A DNA stretch of 24,087 bases from Candidatus Sabulitectum sp. (lineage in GTDB: Bacteria; Fermentibacterota; Fermentibacteria; Fermentibacterales; JCC-6): NCBI GenBank assembly GCA_023136985.1, contig JAGLQD010000216.1:1-24087 (forward strand). The letters run 5' to 3'. Under the pieces are notes generated by a model. It was given only the letters and a program-made list of their open reading frames with translations. It searched no databases and was not told the DNA's origin. Position numbers and translations under genes: made by a program. Below, piece after piece: positions 3,536-19,089 of the stretch. Every line of letters begins with the position of its first letter. Position 1 is the first letter of the stretch.

Positions 3536-3627
3536 GGAGGGGTGCCAGAGCGGTTGAATGGGGCGGTCTCGAAAACCGTTGTCCTCTTTTTGGGGGACCG
3601 TGGGTTCGAATCCCACCTCCTCCGCCA
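3536..3627 (+). tRNA. tRNA-Ser (anticodon CGA), CCA encoded
   Basis: Acceptor stem GGAGGGG/CTCCTCC, anticodon arm GCGGT-CT-CGA-AA-ACCGT, long variable arm GTCCTC/GGGGAC, T-loop GGTTCGAATCC, discriminator G followed by CCA. Confidence 0.97.
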
Positions 3628-5817: not shown

Positions 5818-6810
5818 TTAGAATTTTGTCAGTTTCAGAATTTTGCCCATGAGAAAATCAATGTCCTTCCGGGAACGCAGTGCAAATCTGTAGAAACCCA
5901 GATATGCGAGAATAAGAGGCAGTGGCCAGCCGATGGCCTTTCTCATCATTCGGATCTCGCAGAGGAAAGGATCCTCAGGAGCTCTGTTTTCTGCCATTGG
6001 AGCCTTGTCCAGCAGTTCAAGCATTTCAAGAAGAAGGTTTTGAATCAGCTCAACTCTATTGAAATTTATCCAATCCACAGTGTCTTCCGGTTTGTGGGAA
6101 TGTTTACCCCAGCCTTTGCTGATGAAAAGGTAGGGCTGACCTGCTTTTCTGAATGCGTGGTAGTCGGATCTGTCTCCAATGTATCTGGTCAGTGTTGGGA
6201 TAACTCGAAGCCCCTTCGCCTCTGATGAAGCATGCTCAACAATGGCTGGCAGTTCCAGGTGACTTTCAGAACCCAGGATGAAAAGCATTTGTCTTATTCC
6301 CGGAATAAAGAAATCGACTGGTGGAATTCCAACCTGGAAGTCATGACCGATCATGTCCAGGATCACCACACAGGCAAAATCAATATCATTGCAGTGATCA
6401 TTGCAGAATCTGGTGGATCCCATGTTCTCTGTTAGGAAACAGGGTTTCTCCTCTGCGTCGAAGAAGGCCACAATAGTGTTTCGTTCAGGGGGCTTTTTCA
6501 TGAGTATCTCTGATATGCTAAGGATCATTGCAACTGAGATAGCATTGTCATCCGCGCATGGAGCATCTATTGCGCTGTCATAGTGAGCTCCAATAAGAAC
6601 AGGCAGGGCAGAGCTGTTTCTGCCGGGGATAACTCCTGCAAGATTAGTGAATTTATCTCTGTAAGGTAAACAGAAGTTGTTGTTCTTGAAAGGGATCAGC
6701 CCGATCTCTTTCATTCTTTTCTTCAAATACTGCAATGCAATTTCATGACCGGGTTGACTCACCCGTCTTCCACCGGGAAGAGAAAGTTTTTCCGTATCTC
6801 TTCTAATCAT
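5818..6810 (-). CDS. M28 family metallopeptidase, no signal peptide
   Basis: IGAHYDS, ADDNA, FFDAEE, ILDMIG, SDYHAF and HSHKPEDT zinc/catalytic motifs. Start overlaps the upstream ATPase stop. Confidence 0.88.
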   Translation of the reverse strand: MIRRDTEKLSLPGGRRVSQPGHEIALQYLKKRMKEIGLIPFKNNNFCLPYRDKFTNLAGVIPGRNSSALPVLIGAHYDSAIDAPCADDNAISVAMILSISEILMKKPPERNTIVAFFDAEEKPCFLTENMGSTRFCNDHCNDIDFACVVILDMIGHDFQVGIPPVDFFIPGIRQMLFILGSESHLELPAIVEHASSEAKGLRVIPTLTRYIGDRSDYHAFRKAGQPYLFISKGWGKHSHKPEDTVDWINFNRVELIQNLLLEMLELLDKAPMAENRAPEDPFLCEIRMMRKAIGWPLPLILAYLGFYRFALRSRKDIDFLMGKILKLTKF

Positions 6811-9307
6811 CTAACCGGAATCTGAATGCAGGAATTCTTGTGGTTAAACCTTTATCTGTGAGCAGATACACAGGAAGCCAGGCAGGAGTAACAAGAGTGA
6901 TCTGAACATCTGCTCTTCTGGGCTTGATCTCAAGAATACCCGTATCCTCAAGAGCAGCCTCCCATTTTTCTACAATGGTTTCCGCAGCTTCTTTTACCTC
7001 TTCCTCAAGATCTATTATGCTTTCTTCCAGCCTCTCGATCTCTTCCTTTGATTCCTCTATATCAGCCTTTGCTGATTTTGTCATTCGTCTTCTCCGGGCG
7101 GCGCTTGAAAGACCTGAGGTTCTTCTTCTGCCAAAAAGACCCAGCAAACCGGCTATTGATTCACCTGCAGATAACATCTCCTCGTTCTTTCGCCCTTTGT
7201 AGTTGTCTTCATCCTCCTCCAGCTCTCTCTCTTCTTTTGCAAGTTTTGTCTGCAGGCGCTGAAGTTTCGTTCTGGTTTTACCCCGGAGCTTGTCCACTTC
7301 AATATCACGAAGCTCCCTGGCTTTTTCCCGGCAGCGAACAATGAAGTCTGCTTTTGATTCTTCAGGGGAGGCATTCAGTTTAAGTGTGGGGTTGAAGGGA
7401 ATCTCCAGAACACTGTTGTGGTACAGATAGTTGGAGAAATCTCTGGTTATGGTTTTCAAGCTTCTTACTGTAGTCCAGTCTGAAGGGAGTGAATCCTTAA
7501 AGAAGCAATCCGGTTCCGGGTTGTGAGTAAGATCATCAACTGTAAGTTTTCGTGTTTCCGCCTTATCCCATTCCATGATGATTCCCAGGTCATCCGGAGA
7601 GACAAGAAAAGCGCGAACATCTGTTTTGGTAATGTTTCGTTTTCTGTTCAGGAAAGAAACCTTTGCCAGGGCGATAAGAGAAGGCTCATAGTGAAGCTCT
7701 ATTTTCTGCTGCCCTGGGACCTTAACAAGAGCCTGCCCCCTGCTGATATCAACAGGCAGGAAAACTTGCTTAATTCCAGGAGGGAGTACAGGTAGTTTTG
7801 AAGCAGATCTGGTATCTTTAGAAGTAGAAACCGGAGTAGCTGCAGTCGTCTCTGGTTGTGGTATCTCACTGGCAGGAGTCCGGGTAATCTCTTTACTCTG
7901 ATCCAGAGAGCGGATCTGATCACGGGTAAGCGGACCTCTCAGATAGCTCATGGCCCATCTTGTCTGGAAAACAATGGTTTTGTCTTCATGCACATTATGA
8001 AGCAGGAACACTCTGGAATCAAGCGAGGATATGATATTATCGATTTCTGATCTGTTGAATCCCGAACCGGATTCTGCTGAAATGGATTCCAGTCCGTCAA
8101 GAAGGCGTTTCTTGTCGCGATCGGTCTGCAGTCTGCCTATGAACCATGTTCCTGCGTTCGACATACCTTTGTAGTCGATATCCATGGGGTTCTGTGTGGT
8201 AAGTATCAGCCCGAGGCCAAAAGCTCTTGCCTGCTTAAGAAGCCTGAGCAGCGGTTTCTTCGAAGGGGGTTCTGCCACAGGGGGAAGGAATCCGAAAACC
8301 TCGTCAAAGTAAAGAAGAGCCCTGAGGCTGGTTGTGCCTGACTGGGTGCGCATCCATGTAACCACACGCTCAAGCAGAAGAGTAACAAAGAACATTTTCT
8401 GACTGTCAGAAAGGTGGGCAAGGTAGATAATGCTGTGGCGTGGTTTTCCGGAAGGCGTATGAAGAAGTGAAGCAATGTTTAGCGGTTCACCCTCTAGCCA
8501 GGATTGGAAATCAGGAGATGCTATGATGCTGTTCATTGCAATGGCGAATTTAAATCTATCTTTTGCGGGGAAGAAGGTATCTACATTGAAAACACCCAGT
8601 TTTTCAACAGGAGGAGTCTGTATTGATGTTATAAGAAGGGGAAGATCAAGGCTTTCCTGCTTTTTCCAGTAGTGTTCTATAATTGAAGAGAGCAGAATGT
8701 ATTCCCTACTGGAAAGGGGATCTGCATCAATCCCGATCAAACCAAGCAGAGCGTGCACAACCCCCTGTATCTGCTCTCTGATCAGTTCAGCATCGGTTTC
8801 CCAGCTTAGAAGCGGCGGGGTGAGAGCAGAGAGTATGGATATGCTGATCCCTGCATCAGATCCTGGTGTAAAAACAGAAAACTCTGTACTGTTCTTCAGA
8901 GCCTTTATTCGTTCAGGAGACTGATCCCAATCAGCAAGCCCTTTTCTCCATGCCTCTGCAACCTGCTGGGAGTATTCTTCTACTGTAAGCTCTTTCCTTC
9001 TGGCGTCGTCGATATTTACCCAGGGCTTGAAATCGCCGGGTAGCAGGTTTGGGAAAGTAAGGAGAAGATTTGTGATGTCTCCTTTGGGATCAATGATTAT
9101 TGCAGGAACACTGTCCAGAGCCGCTTCTTCCAGAAGATCAATGCACAGCCCTGTTTTACCTGAACCTGTCATACCCAGGCAGACAGCGTGGGTGGTCAGA
9201 TCTCTGGCATCGTACATAACTTCTTCTCTGGAACATTCTTTCGCATCAAGATCGTACTTGCGTCCTATATAGAAGGCACCGAGTTTTTCTATTCGATTCA
9301 AGACCAT
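6803..9307 (-). CDS. HerA/FtsK-superfamily (DUF87/DUF853-like) ATPase with C-terminal coiled coil
   Basis: Walker A GMTGSGKT, Walker B LLYFDEVFG, LILTTQNP, and a coiled coil ..LQRLQTKLAKEERELEE... True start may be TTG at 9301, which has better SD spacing. Confidence 0.88.
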   Translation of the reverse strand: MVLNRIEKLGAFYIGRKYDLDAKECSREEVMYDARDLTTHAVCLGMTGSGKTGLCIDLLEEAALDSVPAIIIDPKGDITNLLLTFPNLLPGDFKPWVNIDDARRKELTVEEYSQQVAEAWRKGLADWDQSPERIKALKNSTEFSVFTPGSDAGISISILSALTPPLLSWETDAELIREQIQGVVHALLGLIGIDADPLSSREYILLSSIIEHYWKKQESLDLPLLITSIQTPPVEKLGVFNVDTFFPAKDRFKFAIAMNSIIASPDFQSWLEGEPLNIASLLHTPSGKPRHSIIYLAHLSDSQKMFFVTLLLERVVTWMRTQSGTTSLRALLYFDEVFGFLPPVAEPPSKKPLLRLLKQARAFGLGLILTTQNPMDIDYKGMSNAGTWFIGRLQTDRDKKRLLDGLESISAESGSGFNRSEIDNIISSLDSRVFLLHNVHEDKTIVFQTRWAMSYLRGPLTRDQIRSLDQSKEITRTPASEIPQPETTAATPVSTSKDTRSASKLPVLPPGIKQVFLPVDISRGQALVKVPGQQKIELHYEPSLIALAKVSFLNRKRNITKTDVRAFLVSPDDLGIIMEWDKAETRKLTVDDLTHNPEPDCFFKDSLPSDWTTVRSLKTITRDFSNYLYHNSVLEIPFNPTLKLNASPEESKADFIVRCREKARELRDIEVDKLRGKTRTKLQRLQTKLAKEERELEEDEDNYKGRKNEEMLSAGESIAGLLGLFGRRRTSGLSSAARRRRMTKSAKADIEESKEEIERLEESIIDLEEEVKEAAETIVEKWEAALEDTGILEIKPRRADVQITLVTPAWLPVYLLTDKGLTTRIPAFRFRLDD

Positions 9308-16786: not shown

Positions 16787-18325
16787 TTATCTTGTAATTA
16801 CCATTCTTGTTGTGGCTGATTCCCCGTTTGCATCCAGTCGAAGAAGATATATTCCAGGAGAAAGTGATTCCACATTCATATTCACAAGGGTTGATCCTGC
16901 AGGAAGTGTCTCTGAGTGACTCTGTACTTCTCTGCCGGAGACATCGAAAAGACTGAGTTTTACCGAACCTGTGAGTGGAACAGTGATAACTGTCGAAGCA
17001 ACAGAAGTAACAGGATTTGAAGATAATCTCATAGAGGTGGTTGCAGTCTCAGTTTGAAATGATTCTTCACTAATACCGGTATTGTCAGGTACTGCAAGGT
17101 ATGCAACTGTAGCGATGGCCGCCTTGGCCATATTGGTACCGAATGGAAAATACTGAAGATAGTTTGCCATCAGGTCTGTGGTCTGGTGGTAGTGAGGGTT
17201 GGACCAGACTGCTTTTTCTATGGTGAGCATTGCAGCATATCCCGCGTTCCAGAAACTGGCATGATCGCTGGCGGATACCGGGGAGGTGGCAACTATTTTT
17301 TCAAGAGCGGGTACATAGGTATCACTCAGCGCATTGAATGCAAGTCCAAGACCGGTTGATGCGGTGTTGTAGTGCAGCCATGCCTGATCCTCAGAGGCAG
17401 GGCCGTAGAAGATCATATCAAGATTAACAACACCAAGAATATCACTTCCTGCAGCAGCAGCAGAGTCGGCAAAGTGTTCGCTTCCGTAGAGACCCTGCTC
17501 TTCTCCTCCCCAGAGAATGTAAAGAACTGTGTATTCGAAGCTGTACTGGCTCATTATTCTTGCAGCTTCCATTACCGCCGCAGAGCCGCTGCCGTTGTCA
17601 TCAGCACCTGGAGCATCTGTCTGGGAATATGGAGAGATGCTGTCCAGGTGGCCGCAGATGATCCAGTATTGAGCCGGATTAACAGTGCCGGTCTGAGTTG
17701 CAACTACATTCTGACAGTCGTATCCCTGCATTGAAAAGTGCCTGATCTCTGAATCCAGACCGTAGGAGTTAAACCTGTCATTGCTCCAGTCGCAAGCGGT
17801 ATCAAAACCATCGGTATTGGAATATCTGGTAAGGTAGCTCTGGTAATTGGTGGTAATAGAAATAAGGCTGTCCTGGCTGACTGCTGCAACAATGTCTGCA
17901 ACAGTGTCATCGTACCCTCTTGTAAGAGGTATTGGAAGAGGAGATGAAGGGGCCAGCGTTTCTCTCAGTGGCTGAACCATAAAGATATCAGATCGAAGAA
18001 AATCACCTCTCAAAGGTCTGAGAAGTCTTACTATCAGGGTGTTTCCGTTCTGGTAAACAACGCTGCCCAGTTCTGTTGCCTGTAGAATCCCATTGTCATT
18101 GCGAACGGTTACAAGGGCATATTCTTCGAGACTTTCTGCACCAGTGTCAAGAAGCTCTCCCTTCTTTTCAAGGGAACCGAAAGCAACCACATGGTTACTC
18201 TGTCGAAGAACTATCACATACGAATCTGCTGGTTCTGCCCGACAGTCGGGAATAGTGAACAGTGCTTCTACTGCCAGGGAGGCTGTAGTCAGCAGAAAGA
18301 GCGCAAGAAGAATGGAGATTTTCAT
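16787..18325 (-). CDS. Secreted M28 family aminopeptidase with T9SS type A-like C-terminal domain
   Basis: GAGGTG SD; signal peptide MKISILLALFLLTTASLA; CGHLDS, PGADDNGSG, GEEQGLYGS, NLDMI, SDHASF, YHQTTD; CTD LSSNPV...LFDVSGREV...PGIYLLRL...MVITR. Confidence 0.92.
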   Translation of the reverse strand: MKISILLALFLLTTASLAVEALFTIPDCRAEPADSYVIVLRQSNHVVAFGSLEKKGELLDTGAESLEEYALVTVRNDNGILQATELGSVVYQNGNTLIVRLLRPLRGDFLRSDIFMVQPLRETLAPSSPLPIPLTRGYDDTVADIVAAVSQDSLISITTNYQSYLTRYSNTDGFDTACDWSNDRFNSYGLDSEIRHFSMQGYDCQNVVATQTGTVNPAQYWIICGHLDSISPYSQTDAPGADDNGSGSAAVMEAARIMSQYSFEYTVLYILWGGEEQGLYGSEHFADSAAAAGSDILGVVNLDMIFYGPASEDQAWLHYNTASTGLGLAFNALSDTYVPALEKIVATSPVSASDHASFWNAGYAAMLTIEKAVWSNPHYHQTTDLMANYLQYFPFGTNMAKAAIATVAYLAVPDNTGISEESFQTETATTSMRLSSNPVTSVASTVITVPLTGSVKLSLFDVSGREVQSHSETLPAGSTLVNMNVESLSPGIYLLRLDANGESATTRMVITR

Positions 18326-18434: not shown

Positions 18435-18462
18435 TTAGCAATTTTACAAACTGGAGAAACAA

Positions 18463-19089
18463 ATGAAAAAAATTATCGCAGTATCTATTTTGCTCAGCAG
18501 CTTTGTTGTTGCAGGGGAAATAGAGATAGGGACTCCTGACTTTGAGTCTCTTAATCCATTCTGTCATTGAAACGGTGATGCAAGACGCCATCAGGTGATG
18601 GTAACAGCTGAAGACATGGGCGGAATTCCTTTAGAGATAACCGCATTGGGATTCATGCCTTCAGAGTATTCGGAAAAAACAGGCTCATACCAGGAGTTCA
18701 CTCTATCCCTTGGGTATACCGATCTTGATGAACTCACAATGAAATTTAATGAGAATTGGAGCTTGGCCCCTGCGCAGGTGTTTTATGATCCACAGGTGGA
18801 TCTTACAAATGTAACTGGTGGTCAGTGGATCATGTTCGAATTCAGTGAGATCTTTTCTTACGACGGATCATCCACTCTTCTGTACGAGTTGTCATGGGAC
18901 GGACCTGTTGATCCACCTGACAGCAGAATTTATTCCATGAACTGGGAGGATTCCGGTAACAGTGCTCTTGTTGGGTACTCACCTGATTCCACATCAGGTT
19001 ATCTCACAACAGTTGTTCCCAACCTTCTGTTTGTAACCACCCAGGCTCTGGAAGCACAAACCTTCGGGGCGATCAAGAATTCTTTCTAA
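18463..19089 (+). CDS. Candidate secreted selenoprotein (208 aa, Sec at codon 36 in a C-H-U motif), or a nonsense-mutated pseudogene
   Basis: GGAG SD, then MKKIIAVSILLSSFVVA|GEIEIGTPDFESLNPFCH-TGA(18568-18570)-NGDARRHQVM..., in frame with the track ORF 18595..19089. Ends ALEAQTFGAIKNSF. Confidence 0.7.
18587..18602 (+). promoter_or_regulatory. Putative bacterial SECIS hairpin
   Basis: GCCAUC-AGGU-GAUGGU; the G-containing loop lies 23-26 nt after the UGA. Confidence 0.5.

Follow-up and report, generated by a model that had tools for sequence, protein, structure and literature searches.

In Escherichia coli, the selenocysteine (Sec) insertion sequence (SECIS) of fdhF is a hairpin inside the coding sequence, downstream of an in-frame UGA, and its apical loop carries GGU (G23/U24). 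Families in which a Cys closely precedes the Sec residue are listed in Table 1 of a catalogue from May 2026 that covers both known and predicted selenoprotein families of prokaryotes (PMC13188914): CxxU families (SelW-like, AhpD-like, and glycine reductase A), thioredoxin reductase with its GCUG motif, and CxU families. Selenoproteins of the cell envelope have also been catalogued, i.e., TonB-dependent receptors of the FCYXU type, DUF1573 proteins (UGC), and UshA-like proteins (PMC13188914). Here, we describe a gene of Candidatus Sabulitectum sp. (Fermentibacterota) whose family is not in that catalogue. The gene occupies positions 18463 to 19089 of a 24,087-nt stretch of contig JAGLQD010000216.1 (GCA_023136985.1), hereafter the window, to whose forward strand all coordinates refer unless another contig is named. 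The window belongs to a metagenome-assembled genome (MAG; 3.09 Mb, 79% complete, the window being on its contig C131) that was obtained from a cold-seep metagenome and has Candidatus Sabulitectum and Fermentibacteraceae MAGs as its closest named relatives. Comparison with homologues makes it very probable that the gene truly encodes an exported selenoprotein and that its family is uncatalogued.

Read from the sequence, the element is one gene of 208 codons on the + strand, running from ATG 18463 to a TAA that ends at 19089, with a single in-frame TGA. Direct reading places a Shine–Dalgarno sequence, GGAG (18453–18456, +), 6 nt before the ATG, which opens a secretory (Sec-type) signal peptide of 17 residues (18463–18513, +) made of MKK, a hydrophobic core, and VVA; an equivalent signal peptide opens all paralogues and orthologues. 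The segment of the mature N-terminus that precedes the UGA (18514–18567, +) includes the first β-strands (EIEIG) and the PFC loop, in which Cys34 (TGT, 18562–18564, +) is followed by His35 and then by the UGA (18568–18570, +), which comparative evidence assigns to Sec as residue 36, giving the motif Cys34-His35-Sec36. The remainder of the mature protein comprises a body (18571–19044, +), predicted from an AlphaFold2 model and fold matches to be a β-jelly roll resembling lectins and carbohydrate-binding modules (CBMs), and a C-terminal tail, ALEAQTFGAIKNSF (19045–19086, +), a predicted helix that serves as a lineage-wide tag; the true stop is the TAA at 19087–19089 (+). A preliminary description of this DNA, made from its letters, had listed the GGAG, the ATG, the signal peptide, PFCH followed by TGA, the downstream open reading frame (ORF), and a hairpin, all of which we found where it had put them.

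Gene callers recover the downstream part only, as an ORF of 164 aa with an internal GTG start (18595–19089). In a collection of 5.8 billion proteins, the database orthologues (57–99% identity) are all 161–164 aa long and cover ~78% of the read-through product; every record is therefore truncated at the same point. This uniform annotation, with GTG 18595 as a possible start, is the substance of the reading in which the UGA terminates and the locus is either a pseudogene or a 35-residue secreted peptide followed by a separate protein of 164 residues. The latter product would have no signal peptide, and no obvious Shine–Dalgarno sequence precedes GTG 18595, according to the preliminary description.

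Conservation of the UGA column, judged by alignment, is far beyond chance. In the MAG, the family comprises seven paralogues of full length and a further, partial copy. The TGA is invariant in 7/7 of the full-length paralogues, the mutual identity of which is only 23–28%, and a single in-frame TGA stands in this column in 8/8 of the MAG's copies that extend to it. Each opens with a signal peptide and continues with P-F/I-x(0-2)-C-x(0-2)-TGA and then [R/H]-[Y/H/C]-Q/M-V/L, and the copies with the same C-terminal tail as the window gene do carry the in-frame TGA. By profile search, the family is present in 34/34 genomes of the same order and 0/6 outgroup genomes; phylum-wide, it is present in 68/70 Fermentibacterota genomes, including 46/46 high-quality genomes, and in 14/14 genera, with 329 matches in total and up to 10–11 per genome. 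Among the best 150 of these 329 matches, 132 have one in-frame TGA and 18 have none. Forty-eight members were read as DNA, with TGA at the Sec column in 42 and TGC in six, and a Cys is aligned to the UGA in 18/18 TGA-less members examined (the six read as DNA and 12 more as protein), in the motif PFC[AG][DS]C. The codon at position 36, by which the preliminary description had proposed to recognize Sec, thus alternates in homologues between TGA and TGC (Cys) and is never Trp. An alternation of Sec and Cys in one alignment column, as seen here, is what classically marks a selenoprotein family.

Closer relatives of the window gene tell the same story. The TGA is kept in 7/7 orthologues with 63–91% identity, at which synonymous sites are saturated (dS ~1.8). 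Among these seven orthologues, the ratio of nonsynonymous to synonymous substitution rates (dN/dS) is 0.058 in the mature segment before the TGA, 0.111 downstream of it, and 0.37 in the signal peptide, the last value being typical of signal peptides. The substitution pattern indicates that the segment before the UGA is under strong purifying selection, and the segment downstream of the TGA is also under selection, a comparison that the preliminary description had proposed. Nor is the TGA unique to this assembly: it is kept in the orthologues of other MAGs, and the contigs that four other studies provide for this site have no listed difference at 18568–18570, the nearby strain differences (18564, 18582, and 18603) being synonymous and outside the stem of the hairpin described below.

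A nonsense mutation, which the preliminary description had kept as an alternative, is contradicted by the same TGA column in paralogues with 23–28% identity, in 7/7 orthologues, and in most of the 329 homologues; such a mutation cannot be common to ~300 genes that have diverged to 23% identity. Further against termination, purifying selection is stronger before the UGA than after it, the natural Cys forms are uninterrupted ORFs, and the β-sandwich requires strands encoded before the UGA. We regard termination at this codon as having a negligible probability.

The spacing between Cys and Sec varies by clade: C-x-U in the clade of the window gene, C-x-x-U in the core clade and most of the family, and C-U in three clades. 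The C-x-U motif of the preliminary description therefore describes the window gene's clade and fails as a rule for the family.

The second line of evidence is a hairpin in the coding sequence just downstream of the UGA. In the window, it is formed by GCCAUC (18587–18592), an AGGU loop (18593–18596), and GAUGGU (18597–18602), i.e., 18587–18602 on the + strand, with a stem of 6 bp and a loop that starts 25 nt from the U of the UGA. A hairpin of 6 bp, extended to 7 bp in half of the members, with a 4-nt loop is present in 42/42 TGA members; most loops read AGGU, with AGUU in one clade and UGGU in one, and the distance from the U of the UGA to the loop is 22 or 25 nt. We measured covariation on a frame-anchored alignment of 28 nt. 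The six core pairs are formed in 239/240 cells, and compensatory double changes occur at four pairs; for instance, pair 11–18 is U-A in 23 members and C-G in 17, with zero mismatches. None of 500 shuffles matches the observed covariation score, and slid registers collapse. The covariation is visible at the level of codons, the paired ones being UAU (Tyr) and AUA (Ile), UAC (Tyr) and GUA (Val), or CAC (His) and GUG (Val). When the stretches from the UGA to +47 were given to RNAalifold unanchored and with no imposed structure, it returned exactly the SECIS hairpin and nothing else. Conversely, the hairpin is lost in 6/6 Cys forms read as DNA, which have Leu (CUG or CUU) at a position where it makes the stem impossible, and the proteins of all 18 Cys forms retain Q-x-L at the stem position. 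The SECIS-like hairpin of the preliminary description is thus borne out by covariation and by RNAalifold, and the caution attached to it, that another fold competes nearby, was justified: that other structure is real and is the single-sequence minimum free energy (MFE) fold for the 45 nt after the UGA, an ambiguity that comparison resolves.

Much of the machinery for reading such a signal is present in the genome. On contig C253, selD (−), selA (+), and selB (+) are clustered, with match scores of 340 bits for selD, 436 bits for selA, and 44.9 bits for the winged-helix domain of SelB. The selD gene encodes a selenoprotein itself: downstream of its in-frame TGA, a stem of 6 bp carries the loop AGGUU at +24 to +28. 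It shares the loop motif and spacing with the window hairpin, which fits one SelB reading both. The immediate neighbor of this cluster is the eighth, partial copy of the family, which runs into the end of the contig and finishes in LEPTTFGAIKSTLG. A tRNA-Sec is present in 5/5 well-assembled relatives (~73 bits vs. a cut-off of 47). One candidate for selC within the window (3536–3627, +) was rejected: ARAGORN identifies it as tRNA-Ser(CGA), and the Rfam tRNA-Sec match at 3536–3623 reaches 44 bits, a near-threshold score (cut-off 47) that it owes to its long variable arm. As the preliminary description had stated for the window, TGA is an ordinary stop elsewhere; it is the commonest one in the MAG, ending 399/1032 ORFs of at least 300 aa, and it also ends two genes flanking the window gene. 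General reassignment of UGA is therefore excluded.

Several points weigh against selenocysteine and should be set beside this evidence. No tRNA-Sec was found in the 79%-complete MAG, in which ARAGORN detects 25 tRNAs, none with a UCA anticodon, so that of the machinery expected by the preliminary description, selA, selB, and selD are in place in this MAG, with tRNA-Sec seen in its relatives. The window's own hairpin is not thermodynamically distinctive, since the MFE structure of the 45 nt is the competing fold, with z = −0.9 vs. shuffles; a single-sequence fold is unconvincing here, and the case for the SECIS is therefore a comparative one. Part of the conservation of the stem sequence reflects an R-Y-Q protein motif that is also present in Cys-free relatives. 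Finally, the assignment of Sec as a whole is drawn from sequence comparison, and a look-up of sequencing runs listed no RNA run for the gene.

The missing tRNA-Sec could be taken to mean that a suppressor or near-cognate tRNA recodes the UGA to a residue other than Sec (Trp, Gly, or Cys), and UGA reassignment is known in some uncultured bacteria. With TGA as the commonest genuine stop and no UCA-anticodon tRNA found, with a complete selD-selA-selB cluster here and tRNA-Sec in relatives, and with Cys, never Trp or Gly, at the UGA column of homologues, we give this explanation very little credence. A position-specific covarying hairpin, moreover, is needed only for SelB-type recoding. Overall, conservation of the TGA, Sec/Cys alternation, a covarying SECIS, and selA, selB, and selD support what the preliminary description had proposed, an exported selenoprotein of a family it did not recognize. 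In mechanistic terms, the UGA at 18568–18570 is very probably decoded as Sec by the canonical SelB/SECIS route, directed by the AGGU loop ~25 nt downstream inside the coding sequence, with the genome supplying SelA, SelB, and SelD.

For none of 41 members does the family have a meaningful sequence match in Pfam or NCBIfam (release 20.0) at E ≤ 0.1, or in the PDB. An AlphaFold2 model built from the alignment of these 41 sequences is an all-β sandwich, with a predicted local distance difference test (pLDDT) score of 85.7 and a predicted template-modeling (TM) score of 0.81. The strands at residues 17–22 and 27–29, upstream of the UGA, lie within the sandwich (residues 21–30 have a pLDDT of 94), and the fold thus needs residues encoded before the UGA. 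The loop with the Cys/Sec pair (residues ~30–40) has a pLDDT of ~72, and the C-terminal helix (197–207) is modeled with low confidence. Fold neighbors in the PDB (Z of 8.5–11, TM score ~0.42–0.44) comprise jelly rolls of the CBM-like and lectin-like kinds as well as PHR domains and the tail-tip domain of a phage, and those in the AlphaFold database are N-terminal domains of surface proteins sorted by the type IX secretion system (T9SS) or by PEP-CTERM (TM score ~0.7). The mature protein is accordingly modeled as a lectin/CBM-like β-jelly roll of ~190 residues, which would be released by cleavage of the signal peptide and would bear the vicinal Cys/Sec pair on a flexible N-terminal loop. A thioredoxin fold was considered and rejected, the model being all-β, with no structural match to a thioredoxin fold and no Pfam hit.

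An exhaustive profile search collected 6,686 related sequences of a domain that has no Pfam model. The domain occurs as three tandem repeats in proteins of ~560 aa and as 2–14 repeats in giants of 1,000–6,500 aa (representatives P0026–P0175), which also bear CBM96, Disaggr_repeat, PKD, and Big domains. In the giant proteins, the homologous repeats run unbroken through the region that lies upstream of the UGA in the window gene. The repeats keep P-F…[R/H]-Y-Q-x-[L/I/V]-Y, with no Cys in the region in 264/324 and CxxC in only 5/324. Since Cys-free repeats are widespread, the single-domain CxxC/CxxU form appears to be a Fermentibacterota innovation on an older structural domain, and we infer that the family arose within this phylum from a Cys-free repeat, the CxxC pair being acquired first and Sec afterwards. 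Cys forms keep Q-x-L-Y where Sec forms have Q-V-[I/V]-[V/A], which suggests that a strand was recoded into the stem of the SECIS; at its birth, the strand codons after Sec would have been changed so as to pair with the preceding Arg/His-Tyr/His codons. The argument that the Cys form is ancestral-like relies on the retained Q-x-L-Y motif, and a maximum-likelihood tree resolves neither the monophyly of the Cys forms nor the direction of Cys/Sec change.

This ancestry, as well as the resemblance of the fold to CBM, lectin-like, and phage tail-tip domains, lends some substance to a structural or adhesive role, in which a genuine selenoprotein would act as a lectin-like surface module with a stabilizing or inter-subunit selenylsulfide and the paralogues would provide diversity of binding. 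Giant surface proteins contain the parent domain as a repeat, together with CBM96, Disaggr_repeat, and PKD domains, and the up to 10–11 copies per genome share a sorting-like tail. The Cys/Sec pair, however, is the sole feature added to the structural parent domain, and Sec is costly and nearly always catalytic or redox-active. An operon with a membrane Fe-S protein (described below) also speaks against a purely structural function, and we consider this role improbable.

The C-terminal tail, which the preliminary description had called lineage-specific, has the consensus …L-E-x-x-T-F-G-x-I-K-x-x-F and is conserved across the family. The pattern [ST][FWY][GAS]x[IVLM]K occurs in the last 18 residues of 30 ORFs in the MAG vs. 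~4 expected, and about half of its occurrences in the proteome are C-terminal; the carriers are mostly small proteins with ordinary signal peptides and unrelated bodies. The tail is thus a lineage-wide C-terminal tag, as far as sequence patterns tell, and possibly a sorting or anchoring signal. One clade (contig C570, 2794–3387, −, with counterparts in relatives, e.g., G008:C351, G010:C210, and G003:C62) ends at an earlier TAG or TAA; it has no C-terminal tail and keeps the TGA and SECIS, and the tail is therefore dispensable in at least one clade.

Two further observations concern the tail. The gene at 16787–18325 (−), divergent from the selenoprotein gene and 138 nt upstream of it, encodes an aminopeptidase of the M28 type that ends in a T9SS type A sorting domain. 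We considered the window protein as T9SS type A cargo and rejected this, as it has no TIGR04183 hit and ends in the 14-residue tail, whereas the neighboring M28 peptidase does have such a hit; the organism uses T9SS for some cargo and not for the window protein. The tail also occurs in a second candidate family of secreted selenoproteins on the minus strand of contig C43 (locus L071), with TGAs at + coordinates 1363–1365 and 2205–2207. These are two tandem genes of ~260 aa each. Both encode a signal peptide, a body resembling NHL propellers, and the motif DLDC-TGA-GSDLDREVTG; the TGA is followed by a hairpin of 6 bp (GACCGG/GAGGUAA/CCGGUC), and the C-terminal TWAxIKxTF tail is like that of the window family.

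A clue to function comes from the genomic neighborhood. On contig C72 (~6591–8339, minus strand; L066:3092-4840), a gene of 583 aa (P0176) follows a tandem pair of family members by 26 nt. Its product combines a signal peptide, about five Cys-rich repeats (CPLG…AC…C…DGDxLCDN), acidic Pro/Glu linkers, and a membrane module of the NapH/NosR/CcoG type (Pfam Fer4_5). A Fer4_5 homologue stands directly beside a family member in 18/29 of the relatives' loci, across several genera and two families, and where adjacent, it lies immediately downstream; in eight of those loci, a gene for an NHL-type propeller lies upstream. The partner falls far below equivalog cut-offs, with 68 bits vs. 1000 for NosR. 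Proteins of the NapH/NosR/MauN/CcoG type deliver electrons to extracytoplasmic partners, either across the membrane or along it, and the conserved operon of the core clade with a membrane Fe-S protein suggests an extracytoplasmic thiol/selenol redox role.

In such a role, the vicinal Cys/Sec pair, which appears to be the functional center of the protein, would cycle between the selenol/thiol and selenylsulfide states as an extracytoplasmic redox center; in the core clade, electrons would come from the co-transcribed NapH/NosR/CcoG-type membrane polyferredoxin with its Cys-rich outer repeats, and the jelly roll may provide binding to a substrate or surface. We put the chance of a redox relay at somewhat less than even. 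Several features tell against it. The clade of the window gene is not adjacent to a Fer4_5 gene and has conserved neighbors of its own, i.e., a convergent SpoU-type methyltransferase and the T9SS-sorted M28 aminopeptidase; other paralogues have unrelated, non-conserved neighbors, such as a GH18 chitinase, an M24 peptidase, and an FG-GAP protein; and the fold is no known oxidoreductase fold, with the Sec loop modeled at a pLDDT of only ~72. A scan for promoter and terminator consensus sequences found none above shuffle expectation, and none at all on the + strand.

A different function of a genuine selenoprotein would be that of an envelope chaperone, scavenger, or carrier, with the Cys/Sec pair as the binding site for soft metals or metalloids or as the bearer of sulfur or polysulfide. 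Most paralogues, including the window copy, are without the Fe-S partner; the variable spacing (C-U, C-x-U, and C-x-x-U) fits chelation or a persulfide carrier no less than a redox disulfide; the habitat is sulfidic cold-seep and marine sediment; and several metal-binding selenoproteins with CU or CxxU motifs have been catalogued (PMC13188914). Set against this are the alignment, in which no other conserved metal-ligand residues are evident, and the conserved partner of the core clade, which is a protein of the electron-transfer type. Metal carriage and redox overlap, because CcoG, a relative of the partner, is a metal reductase. On balance, we hold metal or sulfur carriage to be possible, though unlikely. 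Returning to the redox role, a wider and tentative picture, to which we would give about one chance in three, is a phylum-wide, hitherto unseen extracytoplasmic selenium system, in which up to 10–11 jelly-roll paralogues per genome expose Cys/Sec pairs at the surface, share a tail tag, are reduced through NapH/NosR-like proteins, and, in sulfidic sediments, act on external substrates such as metal(loid)s, disulfides, or sulfur species. It would include the C43 family, and its SECIS would derive from the recoded strand of a Cys-free adhesin repeat.

The decoding mechanism is canonical, and what is new is the selenoprotein family itself. A literature search found no paper joining Fermentibacteria, Fermentibacterota, Hyd24-12, or Sabulitectum with selenoproteins or selenocysteine. 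The family is unusual in its secreted jelly-roll scaffold, its large paralogous expansion, its variable Cys–Sec spacing, the visible birth of its SECIS, and its conserved Fe-S membrane partner. If the Sec assignment is right, several hundred genes across the phylum have been deposited as truncated ‘hypothetical proteins’ of ~163 aa, minus the signal peptide and the only reactive residues, and a scaffold not previously tied to Sec, a secreted lectin/CBM-like jelly roll, joins those known. With eight copies in the MAG and up to 10–11 in relatives, an inconspicuous lineage of fermenters that inhabits anoxic sediments and digesters would be a heavy user of selenium. The family also offers a natural series from a Cys-free parent through CxxC to CxxU, CxU, and CU, in which a SECIS can be seen overwriting β-strand codons; such a series would be useful for studying the origin of selenoproteins and for training predictors of Sec genes. 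Through its link to a NapH/NosR-like partner, the family also points, in a way that can be tested, to possible extracellular redox chemistry in a phylum without cultured members.

Compared with the systems described at the outset, the window family shares with fdhF-type decoding an in-frame UGA, a hairpin inside the coding sequence, G-U in an apical loop ~23–29 nt from the U, and selA, selB, and selD. It differs in a stem of only 6–7 bp with a 4-nt AGGU loop, with no conserved lower stem or bulged U evident, and in that the stem is made of conserved β-strand codons (R/H-Y/H-Q-V-I/V). As in families with vicinal Cys and Sec, a Cys stands 0–2 residues before Sec, and homologues have Cys in place of Sec; analogy with these families makes a selenylsulfide redox couple the likely chemistry of the pair, and the C-U clades recall the GCUG of thioredoxin reductase. 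Unlike those families, the window family has no thioredoxin, AhpD, or flavoprotein fold, is exported, carries the pair on an N-terminal jelly-roll loop, and varies in spacing from clade to clade.

The catalogued envelope selenoproteins (PMC13188914) resemble the window family in being secreted or located in the envelope, in having non-thioredoxin folds, and in their Cys/Sec motifs, the local F-C-x-x-U motif being similar to FCYXU. None of them is homologous, however: 0/41 members of the window family match their NCBIfam or Pfam models at E ≤ 0.1, and the fold, the size (~200 aa, single domain), and the taxon are different. With the jelly rolls, i.e., the N-terminal CBM-like domain of an acetyl-xylan esterase (7tog), the lectin-like domain of Cwp84 (4ci7), a phage tail-tip protein (9d93), and PHR domains, the likeness is one of sandwich topology (VIA-align Z of 8.5–11 over 134–178 residues, Foldseek TM score ~0.42–0.44), reaching Z of ~10–11 for CBM-like and lectin-like domains without a sequence-family match. 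Identity to these domains is only 5–12%, there is no Pfam CBM hit, and none of them has a Cys/Sec pair; any sugar binding by the window protein is putative. The core-clade partner, in turn, has the Fer4_5 domain and the CxxCP-type motifs between transmembrane helices that characterize the NapH/NosR/MauN/CcoG polyferredoxins, and it is set apart from them by its N-terminal outer part, which is unique and consists of about five Cys-rich repeats joined by acidic linkers.

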